This document shows, one piece after another, positions 1,034 through 24,000 of a stretch of DNA of 24,000 bases (position 1 is the stretch's first letter; every line of letters starts with the position of its first letter). The position numbers were made by a program, and so were the translations under genes. The notes beneath the pieces are model-generated. The model ran no database searches and was not told where the DNA came from. It was given only the letters and a program-made list of their open reading frames with translations. Location: positions 1-24,000 of the forward strand of contig JAENYF010000003.1 in the NCBI GenBank assembly GCA_016841905.1, in the 5' to 3' direction. Origin of the DNA: Desulfoscipio geothermicus (lineage in GTDB: Bacteria > Bacillota > Desulfotomaculia > Desulfotomaculales > Desulfallaceae).

Positions 1034-1142
1034 TTATCTTAATTGGTTAGAATGTGTAACTTAAAGCTCGAACATTGTTTAGCCAGTTAAATAAATAGGT
1101 TAAATGGCTGCCAACTTGATATTAACATGAGGTTAATTGGTT

Positions 1143-2828
1143 ATGATGAACGGGCAAACAAAAAACTTGCTGGGTACCTGGCTGGTTAAAGAGGGCGTTA
1201 TTACCCAGGAACAGCTGGACCGGGCGCTGGAGAAACAAAAAATAAGCCAAGACAAAGAAGACAGCCTGGGTAGAATACTAGTCCGCGACGGGCATTGCAC
1301 TGAAGAGGACATTGCCAGAATAACTGCCAAGAGATCGGGTGCTCCTTATATTTCTCTGGATAATGTAACCATAGACCCCGCAGCCGTAGCAACGCTGCCT
1401 GTGGCAGCCTTGAAAAGATATAGAGCTCTTCCTGTAGCCTTTAACGGGGACAAGCTTACGGTGGCCATGAAGTATCCCAATAACCTCATGGCTATTGATG
1501 ATTTGCGAATAATGACCGGCTTTGATATTAAACCTGTGGTAGTGCCTGACAGCGAGCTGGAGGCGTCTATCGACAAATATAGCCGGGTGGGCATGGATTT
1601 TGAGTACCTCAACGAGGGAGAACAGCAGGAAGAGAATATTAACATAGACTCTGATGAACAGGAATCTAAGCCGGCTGTTCAAATTGCCCATATGATTTTG
1701 GCCCAGGCTGTGGGTTCCAAAGCCAGCGATATACATATTGAACCCTATGAAACCCACTTGCGGGTGCGTTTTCGGATTGACGGGGTACTGCATGATATGA
1801 TGCAGCTGCCCCGTAAAATACATGCGTCTCTGGTTTCACGCATAAAAATCATGGCCAACATGAATATTGCGGAGCGGCGCTTACCCCAGGACGGGCGTAT
1901 GTCTCTGAAAATAGAAGGCAAATCCATTGACGCCCGGGTGGCCTCGCTGCCGGCTAGCTTCGGCGAGAGACTGACCCTGCGGCTGCTTGATCGCTCGTCT
2001 AGAATCATTACCCTGGAAGAACTGGGCGTTGCCCCTGAAATATTGCAGAGGTATCGTGAAGCCTTAGCTATGCCATATGGATGTATACTGGTCACCGGCC
2101 CGACGGGCAGCGGTAAAAGCACTACGCTGTACGCCAGCCTGGCCACAGTGGACAAGGTGGCCAAGAATGTCATTACCGTCGAGGATCCTGTGGAGTACCG
2201 GATGGAAGGCGTAAACCAGGTACAGATTAATACCAGAGCCGGCCTTACCTTTGCTTCGGGACTTCGTTCTATACTGCGCAGCGACCCGGATATCATTATG
2301 GTGGGGGAGATCAGGGACCATGAAACAGCCAAACTGGCCATTGAGTCGGCCCTTACAGGTCACCTAGTTTTTTCTACTTTGCACACCAACGACGCGCCGG
2401 GCGCCGTAAGCCGCTTGACAGAAATGGGCATTGAGCCTTTCCTAATATCATCTTCGCTGGTATGCGTGCTGGCCCAGCGGTTGGTAAGGGTGCTGTGTCC
2501 CAACTGTAAACAATCTTATGAGATGGACCGGGCTCAGCTGGAGGCCATACCCGGCTTCCCCCTGGCCAAAAATGAAACCCGGGTCAAGTTATACCATCCG
2601 GCGGGCTGTATGCGTTGCAGTAATACCGGCTACAAAGGCCGAATAGGGGTATATGAACTGCTGTTTATTTCAGAAACCATCCAAAAAATGGCCCTGGAAC
2701 GTAAATCAGTTAACGAAATAAGAAAAACCGCTATTGCCGAGGGTATGGTAACTTTGCGCCAGGACGGCCTGAACAAAGTTAAAGAGGGTATTACGTCCCT
2801 GGAAGAAATAATGAGGGTGATCATATGA
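1143..2828 (+). CDS. pilB: Type IV pilus assembly (extension) ATPase PilB, GspE family
   Basis: It has an N-terminal T2SSE_N/MshEN-like domain, Walker A GPTGSGKST, VEDPVEY, Walker B IIMVGEIRD, His box TGHLVFSTLHTND and a tetracysteine CPNC...CMRC. The start is ambiguous (TTG 1137, ATG 1143 or ATG 1146), with GAGG at 1129-1132. Confidence 0.93.
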   Translation: MMNGQTKNLLGTWLVKEGVITQEQLDRALEKQKISQDKEDSLGRILVRDGHCTEEDIARITAKRSGAPYISLDNVTIDPAAVATLPVAALKRYRALPVAFNGDKLTVAMKYPNNLMAIDDLRIMTGFDIKPVVVPDSELEASIDKYSRVGMDFEYLNEGEQQEENINIDSDEQESKPAVQIAHMILAQAVGSKASDIHIEPYETHLRVRFRIDGVLHDMMQLPRKIHASLVSRIKIMANMNIAERRLPQDGRMSLKIEGKSIDARVASLPASFGERLTLRLLDRSSRIITLEELGVAPEILQRYREALAMPYGCILVTGPTGSGKSTTLYASLATVDKVAKNVITVEDPVEYRMEGVNQVQINTRAGLTFASGLRSILRSDPDIIMVGEIRDHETAKLAIESALTGHLVFSTLHTNDAPGAVSRLTEMGIEPFLISSSLVCVLAQRLVRVLCPNCKQSYEMDRAQLEAIPGFPLAKNETRVKLYHPAGCMRCSNTGYKGRIGVYELLFISETIQKMALERKSVNEIRKTAIAEGMVTLRQDGLNKVKEGITSLEEIMRVII

Positions 2829-10864: not shown

Positions 10865-10897
10865 GGTGCCAGGCACCCAACTTGTTAACTTATTATT
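10865..10897 (+). repeat. REP-like unit copy 4 (left boundary of the RAYT array)
   Basis: GGTGCCAGGCACCCAACTTGTTAACTTATTATT. It is directly preceded by a tandem 11-bp duplication of GAAGCTCATTG (10844-10854 and 10855-10865). Confidence 0.8.
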
Positions 10898-10906
10898 GAA
10901 AGCAGA

Positions 10907-10939: not shown

Positions 10940-10944
10940 GATTT

Positions 10945-11778
10945 TTGGGTAGGAAACCACGAGTAGAATATTCAGGAGCTTTATACCATGTGATACAACG
11001 TGGAAACAATAGAGAGTACATATTTGAAAAAAGTGAAGATAAGATGTTTTTGTTAAATGAAATTAAAGAAAGAACAACAAACACCGGGTTAAAGCTTTAC
11101 GGTTATGTAATTATGGATAATCATTATCATCTAGTTTTGCAGGTTGGAGATGACCCGTTAAGCAAGCTAATGCACTTTATCAACAGTAGCTATGGCCGCT
11201 ATTATAACCGCGAACATAATCGTACAGGGCATGTATACGATGGCCGTTACAAAGCTATACATATTCAGAATGAAAAATATCTCTTGGCAGTACTAAGGTA
11301 TGTGCACCGGAACCCGGTACAGGCCGGCATATGTGCTCAAGTTAACAAATACAGATGGAGCAGCGACATGTATTACCGCTATAATCGAGAAGGTTTTGTT
11401 GATATAGATTTGCTGTTGGGTATATTATCCAATGATAGGAAAAAAGCAATAATGCATTATACTTCATTTATGGATCAGGAAGATAGTACTGATTATGAAT
11501 GTGGAGAAGTAATTGGCGATAAATCTTTTATGACCTCAATTATTCCACCTAAACAGGAAATTGTTAAAAAGAGCTTGGATGAAATTTTAACCGATACCGG
11601 TGTCTGTTCTACAGATTTTGTGTTAATAAAAAACGGCTCAAGAAAAAGACACCTTGTAAAATACAAAGTGAGCTATGCTGAAGCAGCGTTAAAACAGAAA
11701 TATACCTACAAGAGCATAGGTGAGAATATTAACCTTTCAGCTACTGCAATTTCCAAGCTATTGAGTAGAGTTGATTAG
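10945..11778 (+). CDS. REP-associated tyrosine (Y1, HUH) transposase-like protein, IS200/IS605 TnpA superfamily (RAYT-like), with a C-terminal DnaA-C/Trp-repressor-like HTH
   Basis: Motifs are RKPRVEYSGALYHVIQRGNNREYIF, the HUH motif in YVIMDNHYHLVLQ, GHVYDGRYKA, and a catalytic Tyr context RYVHRNPVQAG...YRWSS. The C-terminal segment SRKRHLVKYKVSYAEAALKQKYTYKSIGENINLSATAISKLL looks like an HTH. The start is TTG. Confidence 0.85.
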   Translation: MGRKPRVEYSGALYHVIQRGNNREYIFEKSEDKMFLLNEIKERTTNTGLKLYGYVIMDNHYHLVLQVGDDPLSKLMHFINSSYGRYYNREHNRTGHVYDGRYKAIHIQNEKYLLAVLRYVHRNPVQAGICAQVNKYRWSSDMYYRYNREGFVDIDLLLGILSNDRKKAIMHYTSFMDQEDSTDYECGEVIGDKSFMTSIIPPKQEIVKKSLDEILTDTGVCSTDFVLIKNGSRKRHLVKYKVSYAEAALKQKYTYKSIGENINLSATAISKLLSRVD

Positions 11779-11822
11779 CACCGTATAGTGTGCCAGGCAC
11801 CTAACTTATCAACTTATTATTG
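11779..11822 (+). repeat. REP-like unit copy 5
   Basis: CACCGTATAGTGTGCCAGGCACCTAACTTATCAACTTATTATTG starts immediately after the RAYT stop. It is identical to 10500-10543. Confidence 0.8.
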
Positions 11823-11868
11823 AAAGAATTAACACCTCTTGTTAGAATATAGCAGGAGGTGTTAATTT

Positions 11869-11928
11869 TTGGGCAGGAAACCACGAGTAGAGTATTCAGT
11901 AGCTTTATATCATGTGATACAGCGATGA
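11869..11928 (+). pseudogene. RAYT gene 5' stub (19 codons plus stop)
   Basis: LGRKPRVEYSVALYHVIQR* preceded by the same hairpin and RBS architecture. Similarity to the full copy is lost near 11935, where REP copy 6 begins. Confidence 0.7.
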
Positions 11929-11940
11929 AACAAAAAGAAA

Positions 11941-11976
11941 TAGTGTGCCAGGCACCCAACTTATTAACTTATTATT
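11941..11976 (+). repeat. REP-like unit copy 6
   Basis: TAGTGTGCCAGGCACCCAACTTATTAACTTATTATT. It is the exact inverted partner of copy 7. Confidence 0.8.
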
Positions 11977-12024
11977 GAAAGCAGAAACACCTCCTGTTAA
12001 AATATTATCAGGAGGTGTTAATTT

Positions 12025-12582
12025 TTGGACAGGAAACCAAGAGTATAGTATTCAGGAGCTTTATACCATGTGATACAGCGTGGAAACAATAGAGAGTACA
12101 TATTTGAAAAAAGTGAAGATAAGATGTTTTTGTTAAATGAAATTAAAGAAAGAACAACAAACACCGGGTTAAAGCTTTACGGTTATGTAATTATGGATAA
12201 TCATTACCACTTAGTTTTGCAGGTTGAAGATGTCCCGTTAAGCAAGTTGATGCACTTTATCAACAGTAGCTATGGCCGCTATTATAACCGTGAACATATT
12301 GATATAGATTTGCTGTTGGGCATATTATCCAATGATAGGGAAAAAGCAATTATGCATTATACTTCATTTATGGATCAGGAAGATAGTACTGATTATGAAT
12401 GTGGAGAAGTAATTGGCGATAAATCTTTTATGACCTCAATTATTCCACCTAAACAGGAAATTGTTAAAAAGAGCTTGGATGAAATTTTAACTGATACTGG
12501 TGTCTGTTCTTACAAGAGCATAGGCGAGAATATTAACCTTTCAGCTGCGGCAATTTCCAAGCTATTGAGTGGAGTTGATTAG
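12025..12582 (+). pseudogene. Decayed RAYT copy (nonsense codon plus two in-frame deletions)
   Basis: It is near-identical to 10945-11778 but has TAG at codon 8 (12046-12048). One deletion joins YNREH to IDIDLLLG, removing GHVYDGRY...RYVHRNP and so the catalytic Tyr. A second deletion removes TDFVLIKNGSRKRHLVKYKVSYAEAALKQKYT. ORF-track entry 12070-12582 is the re-opened remnant. Confidence 0.8.
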
Positions 12583-12598
12583 ACTATAAAGGTTGTCT

Positions 12599-12627
12599 AT
12601 AAGTTAATAAGTTGGGTGCCTGGCACC
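12599..12627 (-). repeat. REP-like unit copy 7 (inverted; right boundary of the array)
   Basis: ATAAGTTAATAAGTTGGGTGCCTGGCACC is the reverse complement of the core of copy 6 (GGTGCCAGGCACCCAACTTATTAACTTAT). Confidence 0.8.
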
Positions 12628-12634
12628 TTATTCT

Positions 12635-12662
12635 TTGATTAACTATTTAATTATGGTATAAT
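12635..12662 (+). promoter_or_regulatory. Candidate sigma-A promoter with extended -10
   Basis: TTGATT (12635-12640), a 16-bp spacer containing TG (12654-12655), then TATAAT (12657-12662), about 25-40 nt upstream of the next CDS. Confidence 0.45.
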
Positions 12663-12685
12663 CCCAATAAAGATGTATAATTTTT

Positions 12686-14320
12686 ATGGAGGTGGTCCGC
12701 TTGTTCAAAAGAACCCTGTTAAATGTTTTATTGGCTGTATCTTTATGTTTTTGTGTGGTTTTGTCTACCAGTGCGGCGCAACCTACTGCGAAAGACCTGG
12801 TCATAGCCAGCATTAAAAACTTTGATTTAGGTGTTGACAAAGGCTTTTACGAAAAGTCTGAGGATGTAACCAGTATTAAGATTACTGAGTTTGACGGGAG
12901 CGTTACTAAAGAGATAGGCCAATTTAAAGGTGCGTCTATTGACCTTTTATCAAAACTAGATGCAGCTAATAATGTTATTAAAGTTAGCTATACCACAGAC
13001 ATTGATGGTAATAAACACAACGGCGATATCTATTTAAAAGATGATAAGGTTATCTTAAATAAAGATATCTTTATCTTACTTAAAGAATTCGGGCTCGATG
13101 CATTTAAGGATAACCCTACCATTTTAGAACAAAGTCCTGAGTACCTATATTTATCTAATGAACAGCTTAAGAGTGTCTGGGAACAGATGCTAAGTTATCA
13201 AAACCAGCAACTACCCGAGGAATACAAAGATTTACTGCTTTTCCTGGTGGAAGCCATACCGGATCAGTATTTCAGCCTATCTGCCAGCAAAGTTACTTTA
13301 CAATTAGACCAAAACGGTTTTGAAGATGTTATATACAACCTGTTAACTAAAATAAAAAATGAGAAAGATAGAGCAGCCGACATTGTAGTTAATTTAAACA
13401 AATACAGTTATGAACAGATGGGAGTTACTCCGGAGCAAATAAAACAATCAATTATTACCGGCATTGACAGCATGCCTGTTATATCCCGGGAGCAAATAAA
13501 ACTGTTTAGCAGCTTCGTGGAAGTCAATGATTTTATTTATGAGGCGTCTCTTATACCCGGCGGGCAGAAAAACTTTAATCTGGACCTAGGCTTTAAATCT
13601 CCCGACGGCTCAGTGGGAGGACAGCTTGCCGTTGTTATAGACAGTGTCGGGACAAAAGATAACCTGGAAGGCACTTACAATATTTCAGGTAACTTTAATG
13701 CTCAAGACGGCCCCCAGTTTAATTTTGAAATGAATTGTTTGTGTAATTACCAAGCAGAGGCCGCTTATACCGATACCACTGTCAAGGCGACAGCTAAAAA
13801 TAATACCACCGGTGAATTATTATTAAACTTTGCTGCTACAGCTGATTCCACCACTAAAGTTAATCATAACCTGGTTGTAAATGCACCGGAATTAAATGCC
13901 GCTAATAGTACCGATATAACATCTTTAATTCCGGGACCGGAGCAGGTAACTGTAATCGAACCACCCATTACTGAGGAAACCGGTTCAATAGTTATAGTAA
14001 ACGGAAATATCATCGATACTGAAGTGAAACCTGCAATTAAAGACAACAAACATCCCATAGTGCCGGCCAGAGCTGTATTGGAAGCACTGGGCTGTGGGGT
14101 TAAATGGTATGCTCCCAATGAGGTGCACATCACCGCAGGTGATAAAACAATTTTAGTATTTATTAATGAAAGCAAATATAAGGTCAACGGGCTGGAAAAA
14201 GCTTTAAGTGTACCGGCCTACCTTGAAGCAGGTCGCACAATGATTCCGACCAGCCTTATTGATGAGGAATTAGGTGCTGTAATTGAACTGGTTAACGGAG
14301 CTGTAGTTATAACAAAATAA
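12686..14320 (+). CDS. Secreted protein with a C-terminal copper amine oxidase N-terminal-like (stalk) domain; N-terminal ~440 aa of unknown function
   Basis: Signal peptide is LLNVLLAVSLCFCVVLSTSAA. The C-terminus IVIVNGNIID...IVPARAVLEALGCGVKWYAPNEVHITAGDKTILVFINESKYKVNG...GRTMIPTSLIDEELGAVIEL matches the Cu_amine_oxidN1 repeat pattern. The start may instead be TTG 12701, behind GGAGGTGG. Confidence 0.8.
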   Translation: MEVVRLFKRTLLNVLLAVSLCFCVVLSTSAAQPTAKDLVIASIKNFDLGVDKGFYEKSEDVTSIKITEFDGSVTKEIGQFKGASIDLLSKLDAANNVIKVSYTTDIDGNKHNGDIYLKDDKVILNKDIFILLKEFGLDAFKDNPTILEQSPEYLYLSNEQLKSVWEQMLSYQNQQLPEEYKDLLLFLVEAIPDQYFSLSASKVTLQLDQNGFEDVIYNLLTKIKNEKDRAADIVVNLNKYSYEQMGVTPEQIKQSIITGIDSMPVISREQIKLFSSFVEVNDFIYEASLIPGGQKNFNLDLGFKSPDGSVGGQLAVVIDSVGTKDNLEGTYNISGNFNAQDGPQFNFEMNCLCNYQAEAAYTDTTVKATAKNNTTGELLLNFAATADSTTKVNHNLVVNAPELNAANSTDITSLIPGPEQVTVIEPPITEETGSIVIVNGNIIDTEVKPAIKDNKHPIVPARAVLEALGCGVKWYAPNEVHITAGDKTILVFINESKYKVNGLEKALSVPAYLEAGRTMIPTSLIDEELGAVIELVNGAVVITK

Positions 14321-14333
14321 TATAAGCGATAAA

Positions 14334-14379
14334 AACCAATCCGCCGCGATGCAAGCTAAAAACGGCGGGTTGGTTTTTT
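14334..14379 (+). terminator. Rho-independent terminator
   Basis: AACCAATCCGCCG (14334-14346) pairs with CGGCGGGTTGGTT (14363-14375) over 13 bp with one G-U pair, followed by TTTT. Confidence 0.75.
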
Positions 14380-14574
14380 GCTATTTAAAAATGTTTTATT
14401 ATTACATAGTGAAATTTAGACGCTCACCAGGGATATTCATGTGTAGCAGACCTATGTTAGTTCTAAGATATTTTAATAAAATACGAGAATCAAAATAATT
14501 GCTAAGTATTTAATTAATAATATAATTTTTTGGTATATAATTTTATTACATAAGCTTTGACTGGGGGCAACATC

Positions 14575-15726
14575 GTGAGTTTACTTGTTCTAGGAAATAA
14601 AAGGGGTGCGGCACTACCTATTGTTCTTATGGTTATGCTTGTATTAGGATTACTGGGAGTTAGCTTGTGGCAATACAGTATGGCAGATACCCTTCAAGTA
14701 TCGAGAGATATAAAACATATGCAAGCACATTATGTTGCTCGTGCAGGGGCTAATATGGGCTTTAAAGTTATAAGTGATTTATTTAATTCTGATAATAAAC
14801 CGGAAAATATTGAAGACCTAAGTACAGAATTGGCATCTCGTGTTATCCAAGGAGATATTGCCACCGGTAACTTCACAGTAAAGTTTCATGATTTTGATTT
14901 AGATAGTAATAAGATTAAAATAACTTCAGAAGGTGTATTAAAAACGGATCCAAGCATTAAGGATTTAGTAGTCTTAACAGTTTTTTTATCAATCTTTGAT
15001 CACGTTATAATAGATATAGAGAGACCCGCTGTTTGGTTTGGGGGCAATAGTCATAATGCTTTACATAAGGCATTTGATAATCCGTTACCCGATAATGGTG
15101 TAATTCTTTATAGTACCAATAACCAATGTCTGCAATATGTGCAAAACCAGGAGAACACTTTTTTAGCATATTCTATTGAATTTCGAGCGCAGGAATATAG
15201 TAAAAACGACACACGAGAGTACAGTTTTGAGGTTAAAGAATCTCGAAGTATTAGTCTGGATGCGAAATATATTATTTTTAAGGGAATTGTATCACTTGAG
15301 GATAAAAAGGATGGTAATAACATGGCAATAATTAACCTTTTATCTTCTTCAACGGAACGAACTTTTGAAGGGTTAGCATTAGAAGAAAAGGGCCTTGACT
15401 TAAGAAATGACTTGGATATTGGGGATAGTATACCTTTAGAAACCATTAGAATGAATCGTTTTGGTGTGGTAGTTTTTGAAGACGATGTGATTTGGAAAAA
15501 AGGAGACAACAGTGAAGAAACAATAATATTGCCTGGATATTATTTATATAATGAAGCAGGAGTTACCTTAGCGCAAGATGTGGTTCATCCAAATAATGTT
15601 GGAGAGTACTATTCTAATAAGTTAATAAAAATCACAAATGAAGAAAAAATTAAAGATATTTTTGAAGATTCAAGAGTAATTAGTTCAGAATATAACATAG
15701 ATAAAATTATATGGGGAAGGGGCTAA
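14575..15726 (+). CDS. PilX-N-like pilus assembly / minor pilin-like protein
   Basis: The N-terminus KRGAALPIVLMVMLVLGLLGVSLWQYS...AHYVARAGANMG fits the PilX N-terminal pattern (RG-A/S-hydrophobic helix ... AEAG). There is no canonical G/F..E cleavage site. GTG 14575 behind GGGGG is preferred over TTG 14557. Confidence 0.6.
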   Translation: MSLLVLGNKRGAALPIVLMVMLVLGLLGVSLWQYSMADTLQVSRDIKHMQAHYVARAGANMGFKVISDLFNSDNKPENIEDLSTELASRVIQGDIATGNFTVKFHDFDLDSNKIKITSEGVLKTDPSIKDLVVLTVFLSIFDHVIIDIERPAVWFGGNSHNALHKAFDNPLPDNGVILYSTNNQCLQYVQNQENTFLAYSIEFRAQEYSKNDTREYSFEVKESRSISLDAKYIIFKGIVSLEDKKDGNNMAIINLLSSSTERTFEGLALEEKGLDLRNDLDIGDSIPLETIRMNRFGVVVFEDDVIWKKGDNSEETIILPGYYLYNEAGVTLAQDVVHPNNVGEYYSNKLIKITNEEKIKDIFEDSRVISSEYNIDKIIWGRG

Positions 15727-15762
15727 TTATTATTTAGAGTATCTGTTTAAGAGGGTGGGTTT

Positions 15763-16113
15763 GTGGGTAAAAGGAAACAGCATGAAAATGGCTTTGCTCT
15801 AGTGGAAGTATTAATAGCGTTGATTATCTTATTAATTATTGTATTTGCATTCGTCTCTCTTTTTAGCTTTAGTTTTTCAGGTGTAATGTCAGCCGGTTAT
15901 AGTAGTGATGCTCTTTATGAAGCACAACAAAAAATGGAGAATGCTTTATTGGATACAACATATTTAGGTGATAATGCCGGAGAAGTAGTGCGAACACCTA
16001 ATACTATAAACGGGATATATGGACAAGAACTAACTGTGAACATTGATTATTTAGACGGCAATGGTAATGTGAGAACAGTTTCTTTGACTACTTTTTTACC
16101 AGATAATATGTAA
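15763..16113 (+). CDS. Minor pilin (prepilin-type N-terminal cleavage/methylation domain)
   Basis: MGKRKQHENG followed by FALVEVLIALIILLIIVFAF (G-1, F+1, E+5). It is small (116 aa). The GTG start follows GAGGGTGGG. Confidence 0.8.
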   Translation: MGKRKQHENGFALVEVLIALIILLIIVFAFVSLFSFSFSGVMSAGYSSDALYEAQQKMENALLDTTYLGDNAGEVVRTPNTINGIYGQELTVNIDYLDGNGNVRTVSLTTFLPDNM

Positions 16114-16134
16114 AATAAATCAGGTGATGCTTCG

Positions 16135-17178
16135 GTGGGTAATGTAAAATTAAACTACATTCAGGGAGAAAATGGTTATAGTTTAGTTGAGTTAATAGTG
16201 GCCATTTTTTTACTATTAATAACTTTGGCGATTGGGTTTAGCTTTTTTTTCTTTGGTTTAAATTCATTTGTAACCGGCGAATTGAATTCCAATGTGCAGC
16301 AAAACGTACGGTTAAAAGCAAAATATATTAGTGATGAAGTTCGTTATGCAACAGAAATGGAAATACTTGCAACTAAACCATCAGATGCTGAATTCAATGA
16401 TAGCTATAACTATATGTATTTAGATGACGGGAAAATAATGGTTAAGAAAGGTGCTGAGGCAGCTTATCAGGTACCTGTTGGTATTTCAGAAGGAATAGAA
16501 TTTTCTTTAGATTTTTATGGTAACGAAATAGAAACTTCTATGATAAAATTCCTTATATCTGGCAAAAAGAATGAAGGTAAAAAATATGAAGTTTCTTCCG
16601 AAGTATCTGTGCTTAATTTAACTTACATCCCAAATGTCAGCGGTACAGCCATAAAATACCGGGATAAAGTTTTTTTAGTAATAACAAATACTGATTTAAA
16701 TTATTCAATAAATGGTGAACCTTATGAACATAAATTTTTAGCTAGAGGCGGTAACCCGCCTTATTATTTCACGGGACAAGGTGAGATTCCCTTGGGACTT
16801 TTTCTTAATAGCGGCGGTGAATTTTCGGGAACCCCTGCTAATGAGGGTTACTTCACCTTTAAGGTTACAGTAACTGACGCCGAGGGTGATATCTCAAGTC
16901 ATGAGTTTACAATTCAAGTAAAACCACCCAAGTTAGGTGCATCTATTGAAACAATTTCGGGCATTACATCTCTACGAATTTCGAATGTAAGAAATGCTGC
17001 TACTATAAAGATTTATAGAGTAAATGAACCAGAACCCGTTTATACGTTCGATGAAGATGGAGACACGTATATTGATTTAGTAAATGATATTTCTTTGACT
17101 AATGGTGATTATTTTACCACCCAAACTGTTAATGGTGTTACGAGTGAACGGTCAGACGTTATCAATATAAGCATTTAA
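16135..17178 (+). CDS. Modular minor pilin: prepilin N-terminus plus a C-terminal Ig-like (He_PIG/putative Ig) domain
   Basis: GENG followed by YSLVELIVAIFLLLITLAIGF (G-1, Y+1, E+5). The stretch ARGGNPPYYFTGQGEIPLGLFLNSGGEFSGTPANEGYFTFKVTVTDAEGDISSHEFTIQV matches the putative-Ig (He_PIG/dystroglycan-type) pattern and is followed by a further beta-rich tail. The GTG start lies 7 nt after AGGTGA. Confidence 0.8.
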   Translation: MGNVKLNYIQGENGYSLVELIVAIFLLLITLAIGFSFFFFGLNSFVTGELNSNVQQNVRLKAKYISDEVRYATEMEILATKPSDAEFNDSYNYMYLDDGKIMVKKGAEAAYQVPVGISEGIEFSLDFYGNEIETSMIKFLISGKKNEGKKYEVSSEVSVLNLTYIPNVSGTAIKYRDKVFLVITNTDLNYSINGEPYEHKFLARGGNPPYYFTGQGEIPLGLFLNSGGEFSGTPANEGYFTFKVTVTDAEGDISSHEFTIQVKPPKLGASIETISGITSLRISNVRNAATIKIYRVNEPEPVYTFDEDGDTYIDLVNDISLTNGDYFTTQTVNGVTSERSDVINISI

Positions 17179-17514
17179 AAATACGTTCTAGTTGATTAAA
17201 CTTCAATTATTCTTTAAGCCTATTTTATTTAAGCACTCTGATATATTAACAGTCCGTTTAAATTTCCTTGTCCCCCCCTGCTTTTAAAACTGACATCCTC
17301 ATAAGCCAAACCGACCGCGGTGGGGGAACAGGTGTTCTTTTCTCGTGCCGAATTATATGGATAAAATTGTTGAAAAATGTCTAAATCTCGAAGGTTTTTC
17401 TTTAGTTTGTCGAGAATTTTTATAAAAATTAGTAGGAGCAAAGATTTTAGCAAAATAATGGAATGTAAACAAACCTTCCGGTTGGTTAACTCCGGAGGAT
17501 TCGAGGTGTTAATA

Positions 17515-19965
17515 ATGTTTTCGACTGCTAATAAGCCTTCAAAGCAACTGAATTTTCCAATTAGTGAATTAAAACAAGTGGAAGAAGCACTGCACAAGAG
17601 CGAAGAGCAGTATCGTCAACTTGTTGAACTTTCACTTGATGCTATTATCATCCACTGCGAAGGCAGGATCGTCTTTGCGAATATGGCTACTGTAAAACTT
17701 TTAGGTGCGGCTAATATCGAAGAAATCATTGGAAAGCCGTTAATGGATATTGTTCACCTGGACTACCGGGAAATCGTCAAAGAGCGCATACGACAAGCAG
17801 AGGAACATGGAAAGACAGCGCCGTTGGATGAAGAGAAGTTCACCCGGTTTGATGGGTCGGTTGTAGAGGTAGAAGTGGCGGCAATTCCTTTCACCTACCA
17901 GGGTAAACCGGCGACGCAAGCTATTGTCCGCGATATCACCGAGCGCAAGTTGGCAGAGAATGCACTTCGGGAGTCTGAAGAGAAGTACCGAACTATTTTT
18001 GAAACTGCCGGTACCTCGATGGTTATTATCGAGGAAAAAGATATAATTTCCCTGGCTAACACGGAAGCGGAAAAACTTCTCGGCTATTCCAAAGACGATT
18101 TGGAGGGCAAGAAAAATTGGACGGATTTTATCGTACAAGATGATTTGGAGAGAATAAAAGCATTTCATCGCACGCGAAAAACTGACCCAAGTGCTGCTCT
18201 AAGGAACTGTAAATTGCGGTTCATTGACAGGCAGGGTAATGTTAAAGACATCCTTATGACTGTTGACATGATTCCGGGAACAAAAAAGAGCGTAGCATCT
18301 TTTTTAGATATTACCGAACGCACAAGGACTGAAAACCGTATCCATCAACTTTACAGAGAGAACCTGCGCCAGCTGAAAACCATCAGTGCGCTATATGATA
18401 ATGCGCAGAAACTCGGGCAAAGTCTGGATTTACAGGAACTGGCCGAAGATGTTACCCGTACCTGTGTGGAAATTTTCGGGGCGAGCTTAGCCGGGCTTAG
18501 TAGTGCCGAAGAGGATGGCCGTGTAAGTTTGCCAATTTACTTTCCCCGGGAGATAAAATATCCGCGGCAAATAACGTTGCGCTGGGATAACTCATCACAT
18601 GGGCAGGGCCCAACAGGCACCGCCATCCGTACCGGCTTGCCGGTTATTATCACGGATATCGCCACCGATCCTATTTTTGCTCCGTGGCGCAAGGCCGCGC
18701 TGGAGCAGGGATATTGCTGTGCCGCCGCATTTCCCCTTATCAGCCGCGGTAAACCTTTTGGCGCACTGATGCTGCACAGCGACCTGTCCGGCTTCTTTTC
18801 ACCTGAGCGCGTTGAATTCTTCCGGGCTTATGCTCAACAAGTCGCCGCTGCGCTGGTAAACGCCCGGCTGTTTAAAGAAATAAAGCGTCACTCCGAACAT
18901 TTGCAGGCCTTGCGCAATATTGATATGGTTATTACCGCCAGTCTGGACCAGCGTGTCACCTTCAACGTTATCCTGGACCAGGTAACCGCCCAACTGGACG
19001 TTGACGCCGCCGGTATTCTGCTGCTTAATAAGTATACACAGACGCTGGAATATGCTGCCGGTCGTGGTTTCCTCTCCAAGGCTATCGAGCGCTCCCGCTT
19101 GCACCTGGGCGAGGGGTACGCCGGACGGGCTGCTCTGGAGCGGCGTATCGTTAAAATCCCCAATTTACCGGAAGCAGAGGGATTCTTTACTTTCACCCAG
19201 CTAATATCGCATGAGGGTTTCATATCCTACTACGGCGTACCGCTTATTGCCAAAGGGCAGGTCAATGGCGTGTTGGAAGTATTTCACCGTGCACAGCTCG
19301 ACCCCGATCATGAGTGGCTGGACTTTCTGGAGGCCCTGGCGGGGCAGGCGGCCATCGCTATTGATAACGCCTCCTTGTTTAATGACCTGCAGCACTCCAA
19401 TGTTGAACTAACCCTGGCCTATGACGCTACCATTGAAGGCTGGGCACATGCCCTGGACCTGCGGGATAAAGGAACCGAAGGCCATAGCCGGCGTGTCACT
19501 GAGATGACAATGTACCTGGCGCGTGCTTTAGGGATGAGTGATGCAGAATTGGTGCACGTACGCCGGGGCGCGCTGCTCCACGACATTGGAAAGATGGGCG
19601 TTCCTGATCGGATACTGCTCAAGCCCGGCCCGCTTACAGAAGAAGAATGGGCAACCATGTACCGTCACCCGGTTTATGCATACGAAATGCTTTCGGCAAT
19701 CGACTACTTACGCCCAGCCCTGGACATCCCCTACTGCCATCACGAAAAGTGGGACGGCACGGGCTACCCGCGCGGGCTGAAAGGCGAGCAGATTCCGCTT
19801 GCGGCACGCATCTTTGCCGTGGTTGACGTATGGGACGCACTTACCTCGGAGCGCCCTTACCGTTCTGCCTGGCCTGAAGGCAAGGTGCGTGAACACATCA
19901 TTGAGCAGGCTGGAAAGCATTTTGATCCCAAGGTTGTTGAGGTTTTTCTAAAAATAGAAGTATAG
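17515..19965 (+). CDS. PAS-PAS-GAF-GAF-HD-GYP protein (c-di-GMP phosphodiesterase type)
   Basis: Two PAS domains (SEEQYRQLVELSLDAIIIH...VRDITERK and SEEKYRTIFETAGTSMVII...FLDITERT) and two GAF domains. HD-GYP motifs are GHSRRV, LLHDIGKMGVP, HHEKWDGTGYPRGL and DVWDALTSERPYR. I moved the start to ATG 17515, behind GAGGTG, because the ORF-track extension is AT-rich and not protein-like. Confidence 0.9.
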   Translation: MFSTANKPSKQLNFPISELKQVEEALHKSEEQYRQLVELSLDAIIIHCEGRIVFANMATVKLLGAANIEEIIGKPLMDIVHLDYREIVKERIRQAEEHGKTAPLDEEKFTRFDGSVVEVEVAAIPFTYQGKPATQAIVRDITERKLAENALRESEEKYRTIFETAGTSMVIIEEKDIISLANTEAEKLLGYSKDDLEGKKNWTDFIVQDDLERIKAFHRTRKTDPSAALRNCKLRFIDRQGNVKDILMTVDMIPGTKKSVASFLDITERTRTENRIHQLYRENLRQLKTISALYDNAQKLGQSLDLQELAEDVTRTCVEIFGASLAGLSSAEEDGRVSLPIYFPREIKYPRQITLRWDNSSHGQGPTGTAIRTGLPVIITDIATDPIFAPWRKAALEQGYCCAAAFPLISRGKPFGALMLHSDLSGFFSPERVEFFRAYAQQVAAALVNARLFKEIKRHSEHLQALRNIDMVITASLDQRVTFNVILDQVTAQLDVDAAGILLLNKYTQTLEYAAGRGFLSKAIERSRLHLGEGYAGRAALERRIVKIPNLPEAEGFFTFTQLISHEGFISYYGVPLIAKGQVNGVLEVFHRAQLDPDHEWLDFLEALAGQAAIAIDNASLFNDLQHSNVELTLAYDATIEGWAHALDLRDKGTEGHSRRVTEMTMYLARALGMSDAELVHVRRGALLHDIGKMGVPDRILLKPGPLTEEEWATMYRHPVYAYEMLSAIDYLRPALDIPYCHHEKWDGTGYPRGLKGEQIPLAARIFAVVDVWDALTSERPYRSAWPEGKVREHIIEQAGKHFDPKVVEVFLKIEV

Positions 19966-20071
19966 ATATTTAAATATTATTATGATAAAATTTAGTAGAA
20001 AATTGCCTCAGTAACAATTATTATCAATTTTATGCTGGATGTGCCAATGCTGATAACCAGGAGGTATGTAA

Positions 20072-20896
20072 ATGGGATTGACTCAAACCTTAACAAATAA
20101 TGTTGAAGAAATTGCACAAGAAACAGCAACGATGATAAAGAATATTCCTCTAGATAATGAGATTGAATATTCTGTCTTGATAAGTCGATTACGCGAATTG
20201 GTCAACCAGTTAATATTAACATTAAAATCAGGTGTAGATGAAGATTATATTAGATTCTTTGATGATTTAATCCGGCAAAAAGTCAATGAAGGCTACAACA
20301 TTAATGATATTCAAAGAATATTGACGGTATTGCGGGATAAGTTAATAGACGTAATTGAAAAGGAATATTATGAGCAACCGGACAAGATAAACGAGTACTT
20401 TAAGGTAATAGTCAAAATTATCGGCGAGTCAAGAATTAGCATAGGCAAAGCTTACATTAAGGTACGGGAGAATACAATAATACAGCAGCAGCAAGCTCTT
20501 AATGAGTTGTCAACCCCAATAATACCGCTTTTTGACAAAATCGTGGTGGTACCGCTAGTTGGCACTATCGATACCTTTCGAGCAAAGCAAACAATAGAGC
20601 GATTATTAAACGCTATAGTCTCCGAACATGCGGAAATTGTTATTATAGATGTTACCGGGGTACCTATAATTGATACAGCAGTTGCCCAAAACCTGCTTAA
20701 CGCAGCTAGTGCAGCTAGGTTGCTGGGCAGCACTTGTATTTTAGTAGGGATCAGCCCTGATATGGCCCAAACCATAATTAAACTGGATGTTAATTTATTT
20801 AGTAGTGTCATAACCAATACCAATTTAAAAAAAGGTTTAGAAACAGCACTAAATATAATCGGCCTGAAAATAACACCCGTGCAAAAGGGTAGGTGA
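20072..20896 (+). CDS. rsbR: Stressosome sensor/scaffold protein RsbR-like (N-terminal sensor domain plus C-terminal STAS)
   Basis: The C-terminal STAS is LSTPIIPLFDKIVVVPLVGTIDTFRAKQ...IIDVTGVPIIDTAVAQNL...LVGISPDMAQTIIKL. AGGAGG lies 8 nt upstream. The gene heads an R-S-T-X gene order. Confidence 0.85.
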   Translation: MGLTQTLTNNVEEIAQETATMIKNIPLDNEIEYSVLISRLRELVNQLILTLKSGVDEDYIRFFDDLIRQKVNEGYNINDIQRILTVLRDKLIDVIEKEYYEQPDKINEYFKVIVKIIGESRISIGKAYIKVRENTIIQQQQALNELSTPIIPLFDKIVVVPLVGTIDTFRAKQTIERLLNAIVSEHAEIVIIDVTGVPIIDTAVAQNLLNAASAARLLGSTCILVGISPDMAQTIIKLDVNLFSSVITNTNLKKGLETALNIIGLKITPVQKGR

Positions 20897-20903
20897 ACAA
20901 ATA

Positions 20904-21248
20904 ATGGAAATCCCTATTTTAAAAATAGACAACTGCTTGGTGGTATCTATCCAGGGCAGTTTAACCGATACGGCGGCCCTTGAGCTTCAAGAGAACCTGG
21001 CCCGGGACATATCACAACAAGAACCTGTGGGAGTACTGGTTGACCTAACCGCGGTGGAAATTGTAGATAGCTTTGTGGCTAAAGTATTAAGCGATATATC
21101 TTCCATGTCCAAGCTAATGGGGGTTAATGTGGTAGTAACCGGAATTCAACCGGGTGTGGCGATTACCTTAATAGAGCTGGGTATTACCCTAGAAGGTATA
21201 CGTACTGCATTAAATTTACAAAAAGGTATTGATCTTCTCCGTGCATAG
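20904..21248 (+). CDS. rsbS: Stressosome STAS protein RsbS
   Basis: IPILKIDNCLVVSIQGSL...VDLTAVEIVDSFVAKVLSDISSMSKLMGVNVVVTGIQPGVAITLIELG is close to my recollection of B. subtilis RsbS, including the phosphorylatable Ser in IVDSF. Confidence 0.9.
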   Translation: MEIPILKIDNCLVVSIQGSLTDTAALELQENLARDISQQEPVGVLVDLTAVEIVDSFVAKVLSDISSMSKLMGVNVVVTGIQPGVAITLIELGITLEGIRTALNLQKGIDLLRA

Positions 21249-21263
21249 TGAGGAGTGAAAAGT

Positions 21264-21671
21264 ATGGAAAGCATGCAAGAAATAAATGTGCATCTTGAAA
21301 ATGAATTGGATATCGTCGCTGCCAGGCAGGCAGTGCGAAATCTTTCTAAATCAATGGGGTTTGGGTTGGTGGACCAAACCAGGATCACCACAGCTATTTC
21401 TGAACTGGCCCGTAATATCGTTCTTTATGCAGGAGAAGGCTCTATATATCTTCGGGCAATTAATAACGGTTTGCGGAAAGGTATTGAAATATTGGCTTCG
21501 GATAATGGACCCGGCATTGATAGTATTCAGCTGGCCATGCAAGACGGCTATACCACTTCACGGGGTCTGGGTGCCGGACTTCCCGGCACCAAAAGATTAA
21601 TGGATGAATTTAGTATACGGTCTGGCTCGGGTGAAGGAACACAGGTGGTTGTGCGTAAATGGTTAAGGTAG
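21264..21671 (+). CDS. rsbT: Stressosome serine kinase / switch protein RsbT
   Basis: DIVAARQAVRNLSKSMGFGLVDQTRITTAISELARNIVLYAG...DNGPGI...GLGAGLPGTKRLMDEFSI...KWLR closely matches my recollection of B. subtilis RsbT. ATG 21264 lies 8 nt after GAGGAG (the ORF track starts at GTG 21255). Confidence 0.9.
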   Translation: MESMQEINVHLENELDIVAARQAVRNLSKSMGFGLVDQTRITTAISELARNIVLYAGEGSIYLRAINNGLRKGIEILASDNGPGIDSIQLAMQDGYTTSRGLGAGLPGTKRLMDEFSIRSGSGEGTQVVVRKWLR

Positions 21672-22234
21672 ACTACGGGGTGGTTTCGAAGCCCAAGAAT
21701 AAGGGTGACTTGAACGGTGATGCTTATCTTGCCATTTCCGAGAGAGACTATGCCTTTTTTGCCGTAATCGATGGTCTGGGTAGTGGTGCAGATGCTTCTA
21801 GGGCCGCCAAGAGAGTAATTAATTTTTTTAAAGAATATACTCATTTAAATGTGAAAAATTTGTTGTTAAACTGTCAACTTTATGTTTTTGGTGAACGAGG
21901 TGCCGCGGCAAGTGTATTGCGGTTAAACCTGGCTTCAGGTGCCTTTGAATATATCGGAATAGGTAATGTCGAAGGTTATATATGGGCGGACAAGCCCATA
22001 AGTTTAGTTAACAATAACGGTACACTAGGCCGTGCTATACCGCAATCACCGTATGTAAATAAAGGGACGGTCCAAAGTGGCAATTACATTTATATATTTT
22101 CTGATGGGATATCACGTGACTTTATCAATAAAAGCACCTATTTACACCAAGAACCCTGGGAAATGGCTCAAAAGATTGAAAAAGATCATATGAAAAACGA
22201 CGACAGAACAATAATGGTTATTAAAATAGTATAA
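21659..22234 (+). CDS. rsbX: PP2C-type feedback phosphatase RsbX-like
   Basis: NGDAYLA...FAVIDGLGSGADASRAA, RGAAASVLRLN, IGNVEG, IFSDGI and DDRTIMVIK parallel RsbX (CGDSF...AVADGLGSG, RGATASILKIN, VGNV, HTDGL, DDLTY). It overlaps the rsbT end by 13 nt. Confidence 0.8.
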   Translation: MVKVDYGVVSKPKNKGDLNGDAYLAISERDYAFFAVIDGLGSGADASRAAKRVINFFKEYTHLNVKNLLLNCQLYVFGERGAAASVLRLNLASGAFEYIGIGNVEGYIWADKPISLVNNNGTLGRAIPQSPYVNKGTVQSGNYIYIFSDGISRDFINKSTYLHQEPWEMAQKIEKDHMKNDDRTIMVIKIV

Positions 22235-22259
22235 CCAACTTAAAAAAGGGGGCGGGCCT

Positions 22260-23645
22260 TTGCTAAAAGACTTCGGGGAGCAATATATAAAAATTTTAAA
22301 AAATTTCTTGGAAGATGAAAGCGAGTCCTGTTTATATCAGGCCTCTTTATTCAGCAAAGAATTAATTAATAAAGGAATAAGGCCCGAGGAAATTGTAGAA
22401 ACACATTTAAAGTCATTTAAGGAATTGCTCAAATCCTACCCCTATTGTGAATGGGTGCAAAAGATCTATAAATCATTTAGTTTATTGATCGAAATTATGA
22501 CCTTTTACGGTAATGTTTATAAAGAATATCTAGAGCTTAAAGATAATTTGCTGCAGGCTATGTCTATGCAAGTAGCATATAAGAGGCTGCAGGTTTATGT
22601 TGATGAAATTGAATTTATAACCCAAAGGCTGGCTTTAATAAACGAAGAACTGGATAGAAAAGTAATGGAACTGGGAACGTTACATAAAATTAGTAAAGCC
22701 ATTAACTCTGATCTAAACTTTGATCGTTTATTGAATCAAATTTTGGTCTGTGTCAAAGAAGTTATTGATTACGAAGATTGTTATATTTATTTAATGGAGG
22801 ATCAATCCACTAAATTAGCATTAATTAAACATTATGAAAGTGCCGTCGGTCAGAGTGAAGCTAAGCTTAACATTTTGCAGCAAGTTAACCAACTGGTATT
22901 GAGCAAAAAGGAAAACCAGGTGGTTGATTTGGGAACCCAGACTTGGGACCATGCTTGTTCCGGTACCGGTACGCTATTGGCCATTCCCATGCTGGTGGAA
23001 AACAGAATTCTTGGTATTTTAAGTATAATTACTGATCAGAAAAAAGAAATTATAGACGAGTTGCTTGAAATGCTTTCCATAGTAGCTTCCCACGCGGCCA
23101 TTGCCATAAAAAATGCCACCGATTATGAATATGTCAAAAAGACAGCTATTACCGATGGTTTAACCGGTCTCTTCAACCATCGTTATTTTTATGAGCGTTT
23201 TAAGAGAGAATTGGATTGGTCCAAACATCATGAATTGCCCGTTTCTCTTCTAATGATCGATATCGATAATTTCAAAGAATATAACGACATCTACGGGCAC
23301 GTTGCCGGAGACAAATTGTTGAAAATAATTGCCGATATATTAAGGTTTTGCACCAGGGATGAAGATGTCATAGCACGTTATGGTGGAGATGAATTCGCAG
23401 TTGTGTTGATGGGAGTTGCCAAAAAAGCTGCCTGTAAAATAGCCGATCGCATCAGGGTGTCAATTGGCTCGGAAAGCTGTATGGATAAGAATGGCAACCA
23501 TGAGTCAGTGAATGTTAGCGTTGGAGTATCTAGCTTTCCCGAGGACGCTTTAACTGTAGGTGAATTGGTAAACATAGCCGATAAAGCATTATATATTAGT
23601 AAAAAGAACGGTAAAAATCAGGTTTCATTCATAAATGTTAAATAG
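22260..23645 (+). CDS. RsbU_N-domain / coiled-coil / GAF / GGDEF diguanylate cyclase (stressosome output protein)
   Basis: The N-terminus EQYIKILKNFLEDESESCLYQASLFSKELINKGIRPEEIVETHLKSFKEL...LLIEIMTFYGNVYKEY aligns with the RsbU N-terminal (RsbT-binding) domain. A GAF domain follows. The GGDEF domain has DGLTGLFNHRYF, an RDED I-site 5 residues before RYGGDEFAV, and a DKALYISKKNGKN tail. The TTG start lies 7 nt after AAAGGGGG. Confidence 0.9.
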   Translation: MLKDFGEQYIKILKNFLEDESESCLYQASLFSKELINKGIRPEEIVETHLKSFKELLKSYPYCEWVQKIYKSFSLLIEIMTFYGNVYKEYLELKDNLLQAMSMQVAYKRLQVYVDEIEFITQRLALINEELDRKVMELGTLHKISKAINSDLNFDRLLNQILVCVKEVIDYEDCYIYLMEDQSTKLALIKHYESAVGQSEAKLNILQQVNQLVLSKKENQVVDLGTQTWDHACSGTGTLLAIPMLVENRILGILSIITDQKKEIIDELLEMLSIVASHAAIAIKNATDYEYVKKTAITDGLTGLFNHRYFYERFKRELDWSKHHELPVSLLMIDIDNFKEYNDIYGHVAGDKLLKIIADILRFCTRDEDVIARYGGDEFAVVLMGVAKKAACKIADRIRVSIGSESCMDKNGNHESVNVSVGVSSFPEDALTVGELVNIADKALYISKKNGKNQVSFINVK

Positions 23646-23811
23646 TTTTATCTATAAGAGGCAAACCTGTTGAAAAACAGTGACACGAAGCCCGTGAGTA
23701 TAAGTTTTCAAAGACTATGACGTTAAGATTGCAATATTAGACGTTATGCCTGTTTGTTCTTCCTCGACAGGTTTTTCTTATGTATGGAGTACATGAGTGA
23801 TATTCAATTGT

Positions 23812-24000
23812 TTACTCTTCGACAATGGCGGCCGCTATGGCAGCTCCAACCCCTGAGCCATCTTTGGTAAGTTTAGTGGTAACAAAGCCGGGCTTATCTT
23901 TGAAGATGTTTTTAAGGATGTTGTTTAACTTATCTGCATACCCGGGCATTAATTCATACAATGAACCGTCTATGGCGATGGTGTGGCGGTGCTCTAAGCC
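23812..24000 (-). CDS. C-terminal end of a hexokinase-family sugar kinase-like protein (5' part outside window)
   Basis: The minus strand is open from 24000 to stop TAA (23812-23814). It encodes GLEHRHTIAIDGSLYELMPGYADKLNNILKNIFKDKPGFVTTKLTKDGSGVGAAIAAAIVEE, which resembles the hexokinase C-terminus (DGS.Y...P.F......L......DGSG.GAA..AA). The fragment is short, so the family call is tentative. Confidence 0.45.
   Translation of the reverse strand, partial: GLEHRHTIAIDGSLYELMPGYADKLNNILKNIFKDKPGFVTTKLTKDGSGVGAAIAAAIVEE

Follow-up and report, generated by a model that had tools for sequence, protein, structure and literature searches.

The window analysed here, i.e. the first 24,000 nucleotides (nt) of contig JAENYF010000003.1 of Desulfoscipio geothermicus (GenBank assembly GCA_016841905.1, forward strand), contains near its end the genes rsbR, rsbS, rsbT and rsbX, followed directly by a gene for an RsbU_N-GAF-GGDEF protein. 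Since the gene order and the domain architecture match those of the Moorella thermoacetica locus, we assign this five-gene set to the MtR-MtS-MtT-MtX-MtG kind, a stressosome with a predicted diguanylate cyclase output in place of sigma-B, with a probability of about 0.85. The genome searches reported below cover the assembly from which the window derives (3.08 Mb, 91 contigs, 93% complete, 45.5% GC). The five open reading frames (ORFs) are:

20072..20896, plus strand: rsbR-like sensor/co-antagonist, 274 residues (STAS by Pfam; PDB and fold matches)
20904..21248, plus strand: rsbS-like single-STAS scaffold/antagonist, 114 residues (STAS by Pfam; RsbS structures)
21255..21671, plus strand: rsbT-like GHKL serine/threonine switch kinase, 138 residues (HATPase_c_2 and HATPase_c by Pfam)
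21659..22234, plus strand: rsbX-like single-domain PP2C feedback phosphatase, 191 residues (PP2C_2 and SpoIIE by Pfam; MtX structure)
22260..23645, plus strand: RsbU_N-GAF-GGDEF output diguanylate cyclase, 461 residues (Pfam; RsbU N-domain structure)

The stressosome core

According to the ORF coordinates, 7 nt separate rsbR from rsbS and 6 nt separate rsbS from rsbT, the start of rsbX overlaps the stop of rsbT by 13 nt, and a gap of 25 nt precedes the cyclase gene. All Pfam matches reported for the five proteins lie above the curated cut-offs. The features of a stressosome core that can be checked from the sequence, namely RsbR, the RsbS serine, the RsbR threonines, RsbT and RsbX, were all found.

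RsbR has a STAS domain (Pfam, 55.3 bits, residues 154-241) and matches Listeria RsbR among the solved structures (E = 2.8e-38). An AlphaFold2 model calculated with 23 aligned homologues (mean predicted local distance difference test score, pLDDT, 84.1) comprises a five-helix globin-like N-domain (residues ~1-130), a 45-residue linker helix and the C-terminal STAS domain. In Foldseek searches the full-length model was matched to the stressosome RsbR of Listeria innocua (7b0u, E = 1.3e-15). Its N-domain superposed on the N-domain of Moorella MtR (3zta) with a template modelling (TM) score of 0.80 on the target, a root-mean-square deviation of 2.7 and 20% identity. Because of this match to MtR, the sensor is, according to the model, of the non-haem globin-like type. 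A Pfam scan gave no match, globin included, for residues 1-130; RsbRD_N (PF14361) is carried, across the N-domain, by more distant RsbR homologues. The motifs GTIDTFRA and VPIIDT are conserved in the 23 homologues and hold the candidate phospho-acceptors T168 and T202, respectively, which we take to be the positions of T171 and T205 in B. subtilis RsbRA. T202 sits at the STAS position of the RsbS serine, and the preceding D201 is invariant in the same homologues.

RsbS, likewise a STAS protein (56.8 bits), matches the structures of B. subtilis RsbS (1.4e-35), Listeria RsbS (4.4e-35; 112-113 aligned residues in these two) and Moorella MtS (9.2e-29). Its phospho-acceptor serine is kept (VDSF): in the structure-sequence alignment 'eivDSFvak' is paired with 'dmiDSFiak' of B. 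subtilis, where the serine is S59, and with 'dfiDSFiak' of Listeria. RsbT was recognised by HATPase_c_2 (36.4 bits) and HATPase_c (40.4 bits), and its N, G1 and G2 boxes read ELARN, DNGPG and GLGAGLPG, respectively. Other stressosome loci in a sample of the phylum (see below), classical RsbR-S-T-RsbU(PP2C)-RsbV loci among them, encode RsbT proteins with which it shares 53-62% identity. RsbX matches PP2C_2 (30 bits) and SpoIIE (28 bits), and its best solved relative is Moorella MtX (3zt9, 1.2e-14), followed by B. subtilis RsbX (3w40, 1.5e-11).

The output cyclase

The fifth protein carries RsbU_N (80.5 bits, E = 1.1e-22, residues 7-85), GAF_3 (47.6 bits) and GGDEF (152.9 bits), with the GAF domain spanning residues 154-258 and the GGDEF domain residues 297-457. 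Its first 105 residues match crystal structures of the B. subtilis RsbU N-domain (9.4e-12). The stretch 'TRDEDVIARYGGDEF' shows an RxxD I-site five residues upstream of an intact GGDEF motif (RYGGDEF); both GG[DE]EF and RxxD are retained in 14 of 14 aligned orthologues, and the active site is predicted to be catalytically competent. Thus, both features of an MtG-type output that are open to a check from the sequence were found, i.e. RsbU_N on a GGDEF protein encoded directly after rsbX and an intact GGDEF site.

The AlphaFold2 model of the cyclase (pLDDT 84.2) shows four RsbU_N helices (residues 5-82), a continuous linker helix of 62 residues (88-149) and a further helix of 35 residues (262-296). 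These two long helices agree with the helix-coupled layout of PMC12143880, where coiled-coil linkers are proposed for MtG and other RsbU_N effectors. A 16-residue insertion, LQAMSMQVAYKRLQVY (residues ~98-113, window positions 22551-22598), lies in the linker helix that joins RsbU_N to GAF. According to the alignment, the insertion is present in the Sporotomaculum and Desulfoscipio cyclases and missing from Moorella MtG and eight other orthologues; the RsbU_N-GGDEF protein of a genome from another family of the order (G032) lacks the whole linker-GAF stretch. The insertion could shift the coiled-coil register of the linker.

An earlier sequence-only reading of the window had proposed these five genes at the same positions, and all five ORFs are indeed there. 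Its naming of the RsbR, RsbS, RsbT and RsbX homologues is supported by Pfam in all four cases and by solved structures for RsbR, RsbS and RsbX. Its finer claims hold as well: the serine context of RsbS is kept, as seen from the alignment with the B. subtilis and Listeria proteins, the kinase boxes of RsbT are present in the translation, the N-terminus of the cyclase is RsbU_N, the RsbT docking domain, and the GGDEF motif is intact and preceded by the I-site. We found no evidence contradicting the identity of any of the five parts.

The only RsbU_N domain in the genome is that of the cyclase, which is therefore the sole predicted docking target of RsbT. Neither an RsbU phosphatase (RsbU_N fused to PP2C) nor SigB was found in the 93%-complete assembly, where the SigB/F/G model TIGR02980 was passed by SigF and SigG only; a SigB gene with an adjacent RsbV/RsbW pair was not found in the genome either. 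The sequence-only reading had noted that the locus lacks rsbU, rsbV, rsbW and sigB, and had called for a genome search for sigB: none of the four is encoded there, and the search returned only SigF and SigG and no second RsbU_N.

Comparison with known stressosomes

The Moorella locus was located among the GGDEF-type loci of the phylum sample described below through its RsbX ORF, which is 100% identical over 161 residues to MtX of PDB 3zt9. MtR-MtS-MtT-MtX and MtG were reportedly described by Quin et al. in 2012 (Structure 20:350), with the structures 3zta, 3ztb, 3zxn and 3zt9. The located genes follow the same R-S-T-X-cyclase order on one strand, so that the sequence-only reading was right to name Moorella as the precedent. 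MtG (439 residues) has RsbU_N and GGDEF above cut-off as does the cyclase of the window, and retains RxxD and GG[DE]EF. Its GAF match is sub-threshold in Pfam; in a figure legend of a 2025 eLife paper (PMC12143880) MtG is drawn as RsbU_N-GAF-GGDEF. In both loci HD-GYP genes adjoin the operon, and there is no sigB beside it. The two systems differ in several respects, however. Identities between the window and Moorella are 53% for RsbT, 41% for RsbR, 30% for the full-length cyclase and 27% for RsbX, and the linker helix of the window's cyclase is 16 residues longer than that of MtG. The HD-GYP partner is one large PAS-PAS-GAF-GAF protein encoded upstream in the window and two short proteins encoded downstream in Moorella. 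Finally, type IV pilus genes surround the module of the window; the distance between module and pilB in Moorella is 75 kb.

A few points weigh against the assignment. The identity between the cyclase and MtG is low and comes with the linker insertion, the Pfam scores of RsbT are modest (36-40 bits), and RsbT gave no PDB sequence match at 1e-3.

The B. subtilis and Listeria pathway (RsbR-RsbS-RsbT to RsbU-RsbV-RsbW-SigB) uses the RsbR, RsbS, RsbT and RsbX families that are found in the window; the phospho-acceptor positions are shared as well, and RsbU_N matches the B. subtilis RsbU N-domain structure. The RsbU_N domain of the window, however, is fused to GAF-GGDEF instead of PP2C, rsbX directly follows rsbT, and no RsbV, RsbW or SigB is encoded downstream. 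Modules of the Vibrio vulnificus type are RSTX sets with two-component or c-di-GMP outputs (c-di-GMP, cyclic di-guanosine monophosphate), some of them with RsbU_N (Heinz et al. 2022, PMC9237108). As in the window, RSTX is followed by a signalling protein at short distance. By sequence, the RsbR N-domain of the window is not a haem globin-coupled sensor: it has no Pfam globin match, and RsbRD_N is found in its nearest homologues. In contrast to VvD1, the output of the window's module has a clear RsbU_N.

The principle and the architecture are thus already represented by Moorella, as is the HD-GYP pairing, and the known principle is unchanged. What is specific to this locus is its embedding among pilus genes, the longer linker and the pilus-assembly ATPase PilB as the only candidate c-di-GMP receptor recognised in the genome. 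We consider the finding useful more than surprising. With this locus the system has a second example that is well resolved, and a cultured relative in the lineage, Sporotomaculum syntrophicum FB, has a syntenic locus. The longer linker is a natural variant bearing on the question whether RsbT attenuates or activates such cyclases.

Relatives and distribution of the module

The closest cyclases are those of S. syntrophicum FB (88% identity), Desulfoscipio gibsoniae (85%) and a D. geothermicus metagenome-assembled genome (MAG; 80%). The module is patchily distributed, being present in three of six other genomes of the genus and in two of the 34 other genomes sampled from the order. To survey the phylum, an even sample of 401 genomes was searched with the RsbU_N family, which occurs in 20 of them, the window's genome counted. 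Among the other 19, R-S-T-X followed by RsbU_N...GGDEF is the commonest context (about ten genomes), next to RsbU_N-(PAS)-histidine kinases (five) and classical RsbR-S-T-RsbU(PP2C)-RsbV loci (four).

A phmmer search with the N-domain of the cyclase returned 125 relatives among 1.84 billion representative proteins. The 77 relatives longer than about 250 residues were scanned for domains, a set that is biased towards the window's N-domain; all but one (76 of 77) carry RsbU_N. Among the 77, 43-46 are histidine kinases, and GGDEF (11), SpoIIE (5), HD_5 (5) and EAL (1) domains occur in others. As judged by domain content, RsbU_N-GGDEF shows itself to be a recurrent architecture. A search of an index of 5.8 billion proteins with the full-length cyclase was flooded by GAF-GGDEF proteins without RsbU_N, and MtG was not among the matches listed.

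G032 (C144:13000-32900) encodes two tandem RsbT paralogues and two RsbU_N outputs, i.e. an RsbU_N-GGDEF cyclase and an RsbU_N-GAF-HD-GYP predicted phosphodiesterase:

8897-10309, 11846-13024, 13621-14040 and 14028-14495, all minus strand: ORFs of the two-output stressosome locus of G032

As this relative has an RsbU_N-GAF-HD-GYP protein, a single stressosome may govern both the synthesis and the breakdown of c-di-GMP. In another genome (G119, C1:599000-618900) the order is R-T'-S-T-X-cyclase, where an extra RsbT-like kinase, 41% identical to the window's RsbT, is encoded between rsbR and rsbS (ORF 12436-12858, minus strand).

The HD-GYP neighbour

Upstream of rsbR lie two further features:

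17377..19965, plus strand: PAS-PAS-GAF-GAF-HD-GYP candidate c-di-GMP phosphodiesterase (Pfam HD_5 133 bits, two GAF, two PAS)
19966..20071, plus strand: AT-rich 106-nt spacer between the HD-GYP gene and rsbR, with weak promoter-like hexamers and an AGGAGG ribosome-binding site (consensus matches only)

The protein has the motifs HDIGK (LLHDIGK) and HHEKWDGTGYP and is a probable antagonist of the cyclase. A Pfam scan found no RsbU_N domain in it, and its regulation is predicted to come from the PAS and GAF domains that it carries, not from RsbT. A terminator scan found no terminator-like site in the spacer.

The only orthologue of the HD-GYP gene that was found is in S. syntrophicum (86%); S. 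syntrophicum excepted, no member of the genus has one above 53% identity. HD-GYP genes nevertheless stand beside the module in four arrangements: the one shared by the window and S. syntrophicum, that of the D. geothermicus MAG, in which a GAF-HD-GYP gene starts 4 nt past the cyclase stop, that of Moorella, with two HD_5 genes after MtG on the same strand, and that of G032. Of the module loci compared, only that of D. gibsoniae is without such a neighbour. Because the window's genome has only six HD_5 loci, chance adjacency is unlikely, and from these gene arrangements the pairing of cyclase and predicted phosphodiesterase is a recurrent trait of this kind of module. The sequence-only reading had singled out the adjacency as noteworthy. 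The adjacency is real, with 106 nt between the HD-GYP gene and rsbR, but Moorella already shows it in the two genes after MtG.

Ten GGDEF matches were counted in the same genome. Four of the six HD-GYP loci adjoin a GGDEF domain (C5:49232-50191, C5:74733-75773, C51:5313-6284 and C57:8403-9262), three of them within one open frame, while at C57 the two domains fall into two separate short frames. In the D. geothermicus MAG, two genes for KaiC-family ATPases (L007 12641-14751) lie a short way downstream of the cyclase/HD-GYP pair, from which they are separated by a 112-residue ORF (12302-12640).

Proposed mechanism and sign of the response

From the observed gene order, domains, motifs, folds, single RsbU_N domain and orthology to the Moorella locus we infer a chain of protein-protein steps, together with a sign and a possible link to PilB. 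The STAS domains of RsbR and RsbS would assemble the stressosome and sequester the kinase RsbT. Upon a signal at the globin-like N-domain of RsbR, RsbT would phosphorylate RsbS at the VDSF serine and RsbR at T168 and T202 and would be released. Free RsbT would dock on RsbU_N of the dimeric cyclase and, via the long helical linkers, alter the alignment of the two GGDEF domains and thus the synthesis of c-di-GMP. RsbX would reset the system by dephosphorylating RsbS-P and RsbR-P, while the RxxD site would provide product inhibition. The GAF domain of the cyclase may supply a second input, and the adjacent PAS/GAF HD-GYP enzyme would break down c-di-GMP.

The sequence-only reading had assumed that RsbT activates the cyclase. 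This cannot simply be carried over, as PMC7647112 reports that Moorella MtT 'binds to and attenuates' MtG after phosphorylation of MtS. Other papers word the Moorella pathway differently: in one (PMC4976288) it is summarised as phosphorylation of the cyclase, and in another (PMC12143880) RsbU_N and RsbT are said to control GGDEF activity. The latter paper also states that RsbT binding activates RsbU by rigidifying its linker.

We give nearly even odds to the version in which released RsbT would bind RsbU_N and attenuate the cyclase, so that stress would lower c-di-GMP and the HD-GYP enzyme would reinforce the fall. Gene order and domains equal to those of Moorella speak for it. On the other hand, the cyclase shares no more than 30% identity with MtG and has a linker helix that is longer by 16 residues, and linker length can invert the output of helix-coupled signalling proteins. 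The activation of RsbU through a rigidified linker, as given in PMC12143880, also argues against attenuation. That model leads to the opposite version, which we hold possible at somewhat below even odds: RsbT would rigidify the linker coiled coil, align the GGDEF domains and activate the cyclase, and stress would raise c-di-GMP. It is favoured by the general RsbU_N/linker activation model and the AlphaFold2 dimer model of MtG with coiled-coil linkers, both described in PMC12143880, as well as by the continuous 62-residue linker helix in our model of the window's cyclase. However, the only biochemical report on such a system, cited from PMC7647112 above, describes attenuation. Because the Moorella report points to attenuation, the RsbU linker model to activation, and the insertion adds to the difference, we do not favour either sign strongly. 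In view of the low identity and the insertion, neither sign nor gain can be transferred from Moorella.

Setting in the pilus locus

The window opens with aroB, pilB, pilT, pilC, a gene for a small sigma factor, pilM, pilN, pilO and a PilP-like gene, and continues with a pore-less secretin-like gene, a pilin gene, two Y1 transposase genes, a gene for a Cu-amine-oxidase-N protein, a PilX-like gene and two minor pilin genes. The HD-GYP gene and the stressosome module come after these minor pilins. Beyond the window end follow a convergent hexokinase-like gene, a pilin, three minor pilins, tldD, a prepilin peptidase gene, pmbA and aroQ. Thus, the module is 21 kb from pilB and has pilin genes on either side. 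The sequence-only reading had placed it directly beside a complete type IV pilus locus; it lies inside that locus instead, and the locus is complete only if the prepilin peptidase and the four further pilin genes past the window end (contig C89, 25610-30807) are counted.

In S. syntrophicum the synteny of pilus locus and module is as in the window. In the D. geothermicus MAG, 19 kb lie between pilB and the cyclase gene, and rsbR is directly flanked by a paralogue of pilT. D. gibsoniae shares the pilus backbone, both the part that runs from aroB to the pilin gene and the part formed by the hexokinase-like gene and the minor pilins, but its module is 2 Mb away from the pilus locus, beside a DDE transposase gene. 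The segment between the major pilin gene and the hexokinase-like gene (window 9798-17178, contig C89 23812-28418) is a variable slot. Here it holds the Y1 transposase genes, the Cu-amine-oxidase-N protein, minor pilins, the HD-GYP gene and the stressosome module, whereas in D. gibsoniae (C1:2672500-2700000) it holds PrpF-like, aconitase-like and isocitrate-lyase-family genes. The module therefore occupies a variable cargo slot common to close kin, and as the slot is variable and shared by close kin, its position is weak evidence for a functional link to the pilus.

Transposition as the route of the module into the slot is unsupported: a search of 17000-24000 gave no convincing direct or inverted repeats on the flanks of the module, and the pilus slot and the relocated module locus of D. 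gibsoniae share no ORFs.

PilB as a candidate receptor

1137..2828, plus strand: pilB, pilus-assembly ATPase (TIGR02538, 624 bits; MshE-type motif at residues 12-65, nt 1170-1331)

Residues 12-65 of PilB pass the NCBIfam model NF053729 for the MshE-related c-di-GMP motif (52.1 bits; cut-off 38), and PilB is the only protein in the genome to do so. A PilZ domain was not found in the 93%-complete assembly. The MshEN domains of pilus ATPases bind c-di-GMP through two tandem 24-residue motifs, RLGxx(L/V/I)(L/V/I)xxG(L/V/I)(L/V/I)xxxxLxxxLxxQ, separated by a 5-residue spacer (Wang et al. 2016, PMC5013675). Compared to this consensus, the first half-motif of PilB (LLGTWLVKEGVITQEQLDRALEKQ) fits everywhere but at the first arginine (LLG, not RLG), while the second (SLGRILVRDGHCTEEDIARITAKR) is degenerate. 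The first arginine is replaced by leucine and serine in the two halves, and the spacer has eight residues instead of five. The NF053729-type motif is likewise found in PilB of the five relatives tested, independently of any linkage between module and pilB. A link between c-di-GMP and PilB is thus plausible and generic, and PilB, via its MshE-type N-terminal motif, would be the likeliest local target of the messenger.

We also considered a c-di-GMP riboswitch as the link to the pilus and rejected it: over the 42 kb made up of the window and the 18 kb that follow it, no Rfam match reached the gathering score. In searches of the genome c-di-GMP-II was not found; that for c-di-GMP-I was matchless, and since its control also matched nowhere it is uninformative.

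It has been proposed from the sequence alone that the locus provides stress-gated control of piliation. More explicitly, the module and the HD-GYP enzyme would set a c-di-GMP level that is read by PilB, and stress would gate pilus assembly. In its favour, the module lies inside the pilus locus, with pilB 21 kb away and pilin genes on both sides, and this position is accompanied by the linkage in S. syntrophicum and the D. geothermicus MAG. Moreover, PilB passes NF053729 and carries the only candidate receptor motif despite the ten GGDEF matches and six HD_5 loci, and MshEN domains of pilus ATPases are known to bind c-di-GMP (PMC5013675). Against this stand the variability of the slot, the 85%-identical module of D. 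gibsoniae 2 Mb away and the distance of 75 kb in Moorella; the three genomes in which module and pilus genes are linked are close kin and not independent, and the operon has a lower GC content (36-46%) than the HD-GYP gene and the core pilus genes (approximately 50%). The PilB motif is imperfect in both halves and in its spacer, it is found in relatives irrespective of module linkage, and the 42 kb around the locus lack a c-di-GMP riboswitch. On balance, we regard pilus coupling as possible but tentative, with the odds leaning against it.

The full scenario for Sporotomaculum and Desulfoscipio appears unlikely on this evidence, namely that a captured module and the HD-GYP enzyme form a local c-di-GMP circuit in the pilus slot, with PilB as the sole recognisable receptor, by which the stressosome would switch pilus assembly. 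Little is understood so far of what stressosomes without a sigma-B output do physiologically. To our knowledge, the Moorella system has been characterised in vitro only, and we know of no downstream target of its c-di-GMP. The locus offers a concrete candidate target in PilB; if true, the scenario would represent the first physiological output of a non-sigma-B stressosome in Gram-positive bacteria, and the switching of pili would concern syntrophic, spore-forming anaerobes.

A sigma factor as an improbable alternative output

It is very improbable that the stressosome feeds a sigma factor, the candidates being the SigB/F/G-like one encoded between pilC and pilM or an orphan partner-switching gene set on contig C5, with the cyclase as a side output only. 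In favour of such a route, the pilus sigma gene (5151-5753; product without region 3) is in the same locus, 15 kb upstream, and contig C5 has an RsbV/RsbW-like pair with a PP2C phosphatase. However, the C5 phosphatase is without RsbU_N, as the only such domain of the genome is on the cyclase, and the pilus sigma gene has no adjacent anti-sigma or anti-anti-sigma pair. In addition, in the pilus locus of D. gibsoniae, which retains the module, no sigma gene is seen in the interval from pilC to pilM.

The genome encodes four STAS proteins: RsbR, RsbS, SpoIIAA, which is accompanied by SpoIIAB and SigF behind a dacF-like gene, and the orphan on contig C5. The sequence-only statement that there are no sigma-B partner-switching genes thus stands for the locus and for SigB, and has to be qualified by the orphan STAS/anti-sigma-kinase/PP2C set.

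Additional observations

In D. gibsoniae, the sigma gene of the window has no BLAST counterpart at the corresponding position of the pilus locus, and the gap between pilC and pilM is merely 218 nt (ORFs 8710-9921 and 10140-11171). Downstream of the cyclase gene in the window, a terminator-like site was seen on the minus strand only, together with a long imperfect hairpin (z -2.3). The orphan set (C5:58770-63324) consists of a STAS protein (100 residues), an anti-sigma-type kinase (144 residues) and a convergently encoded membrane PP2C phosphatase, with no adjacent sigma factor. Upstream of it lies a gene for a multi-pass membrane protein, MATE-like by eye, with an anti-sigma-kinase-like C-terminal domain.

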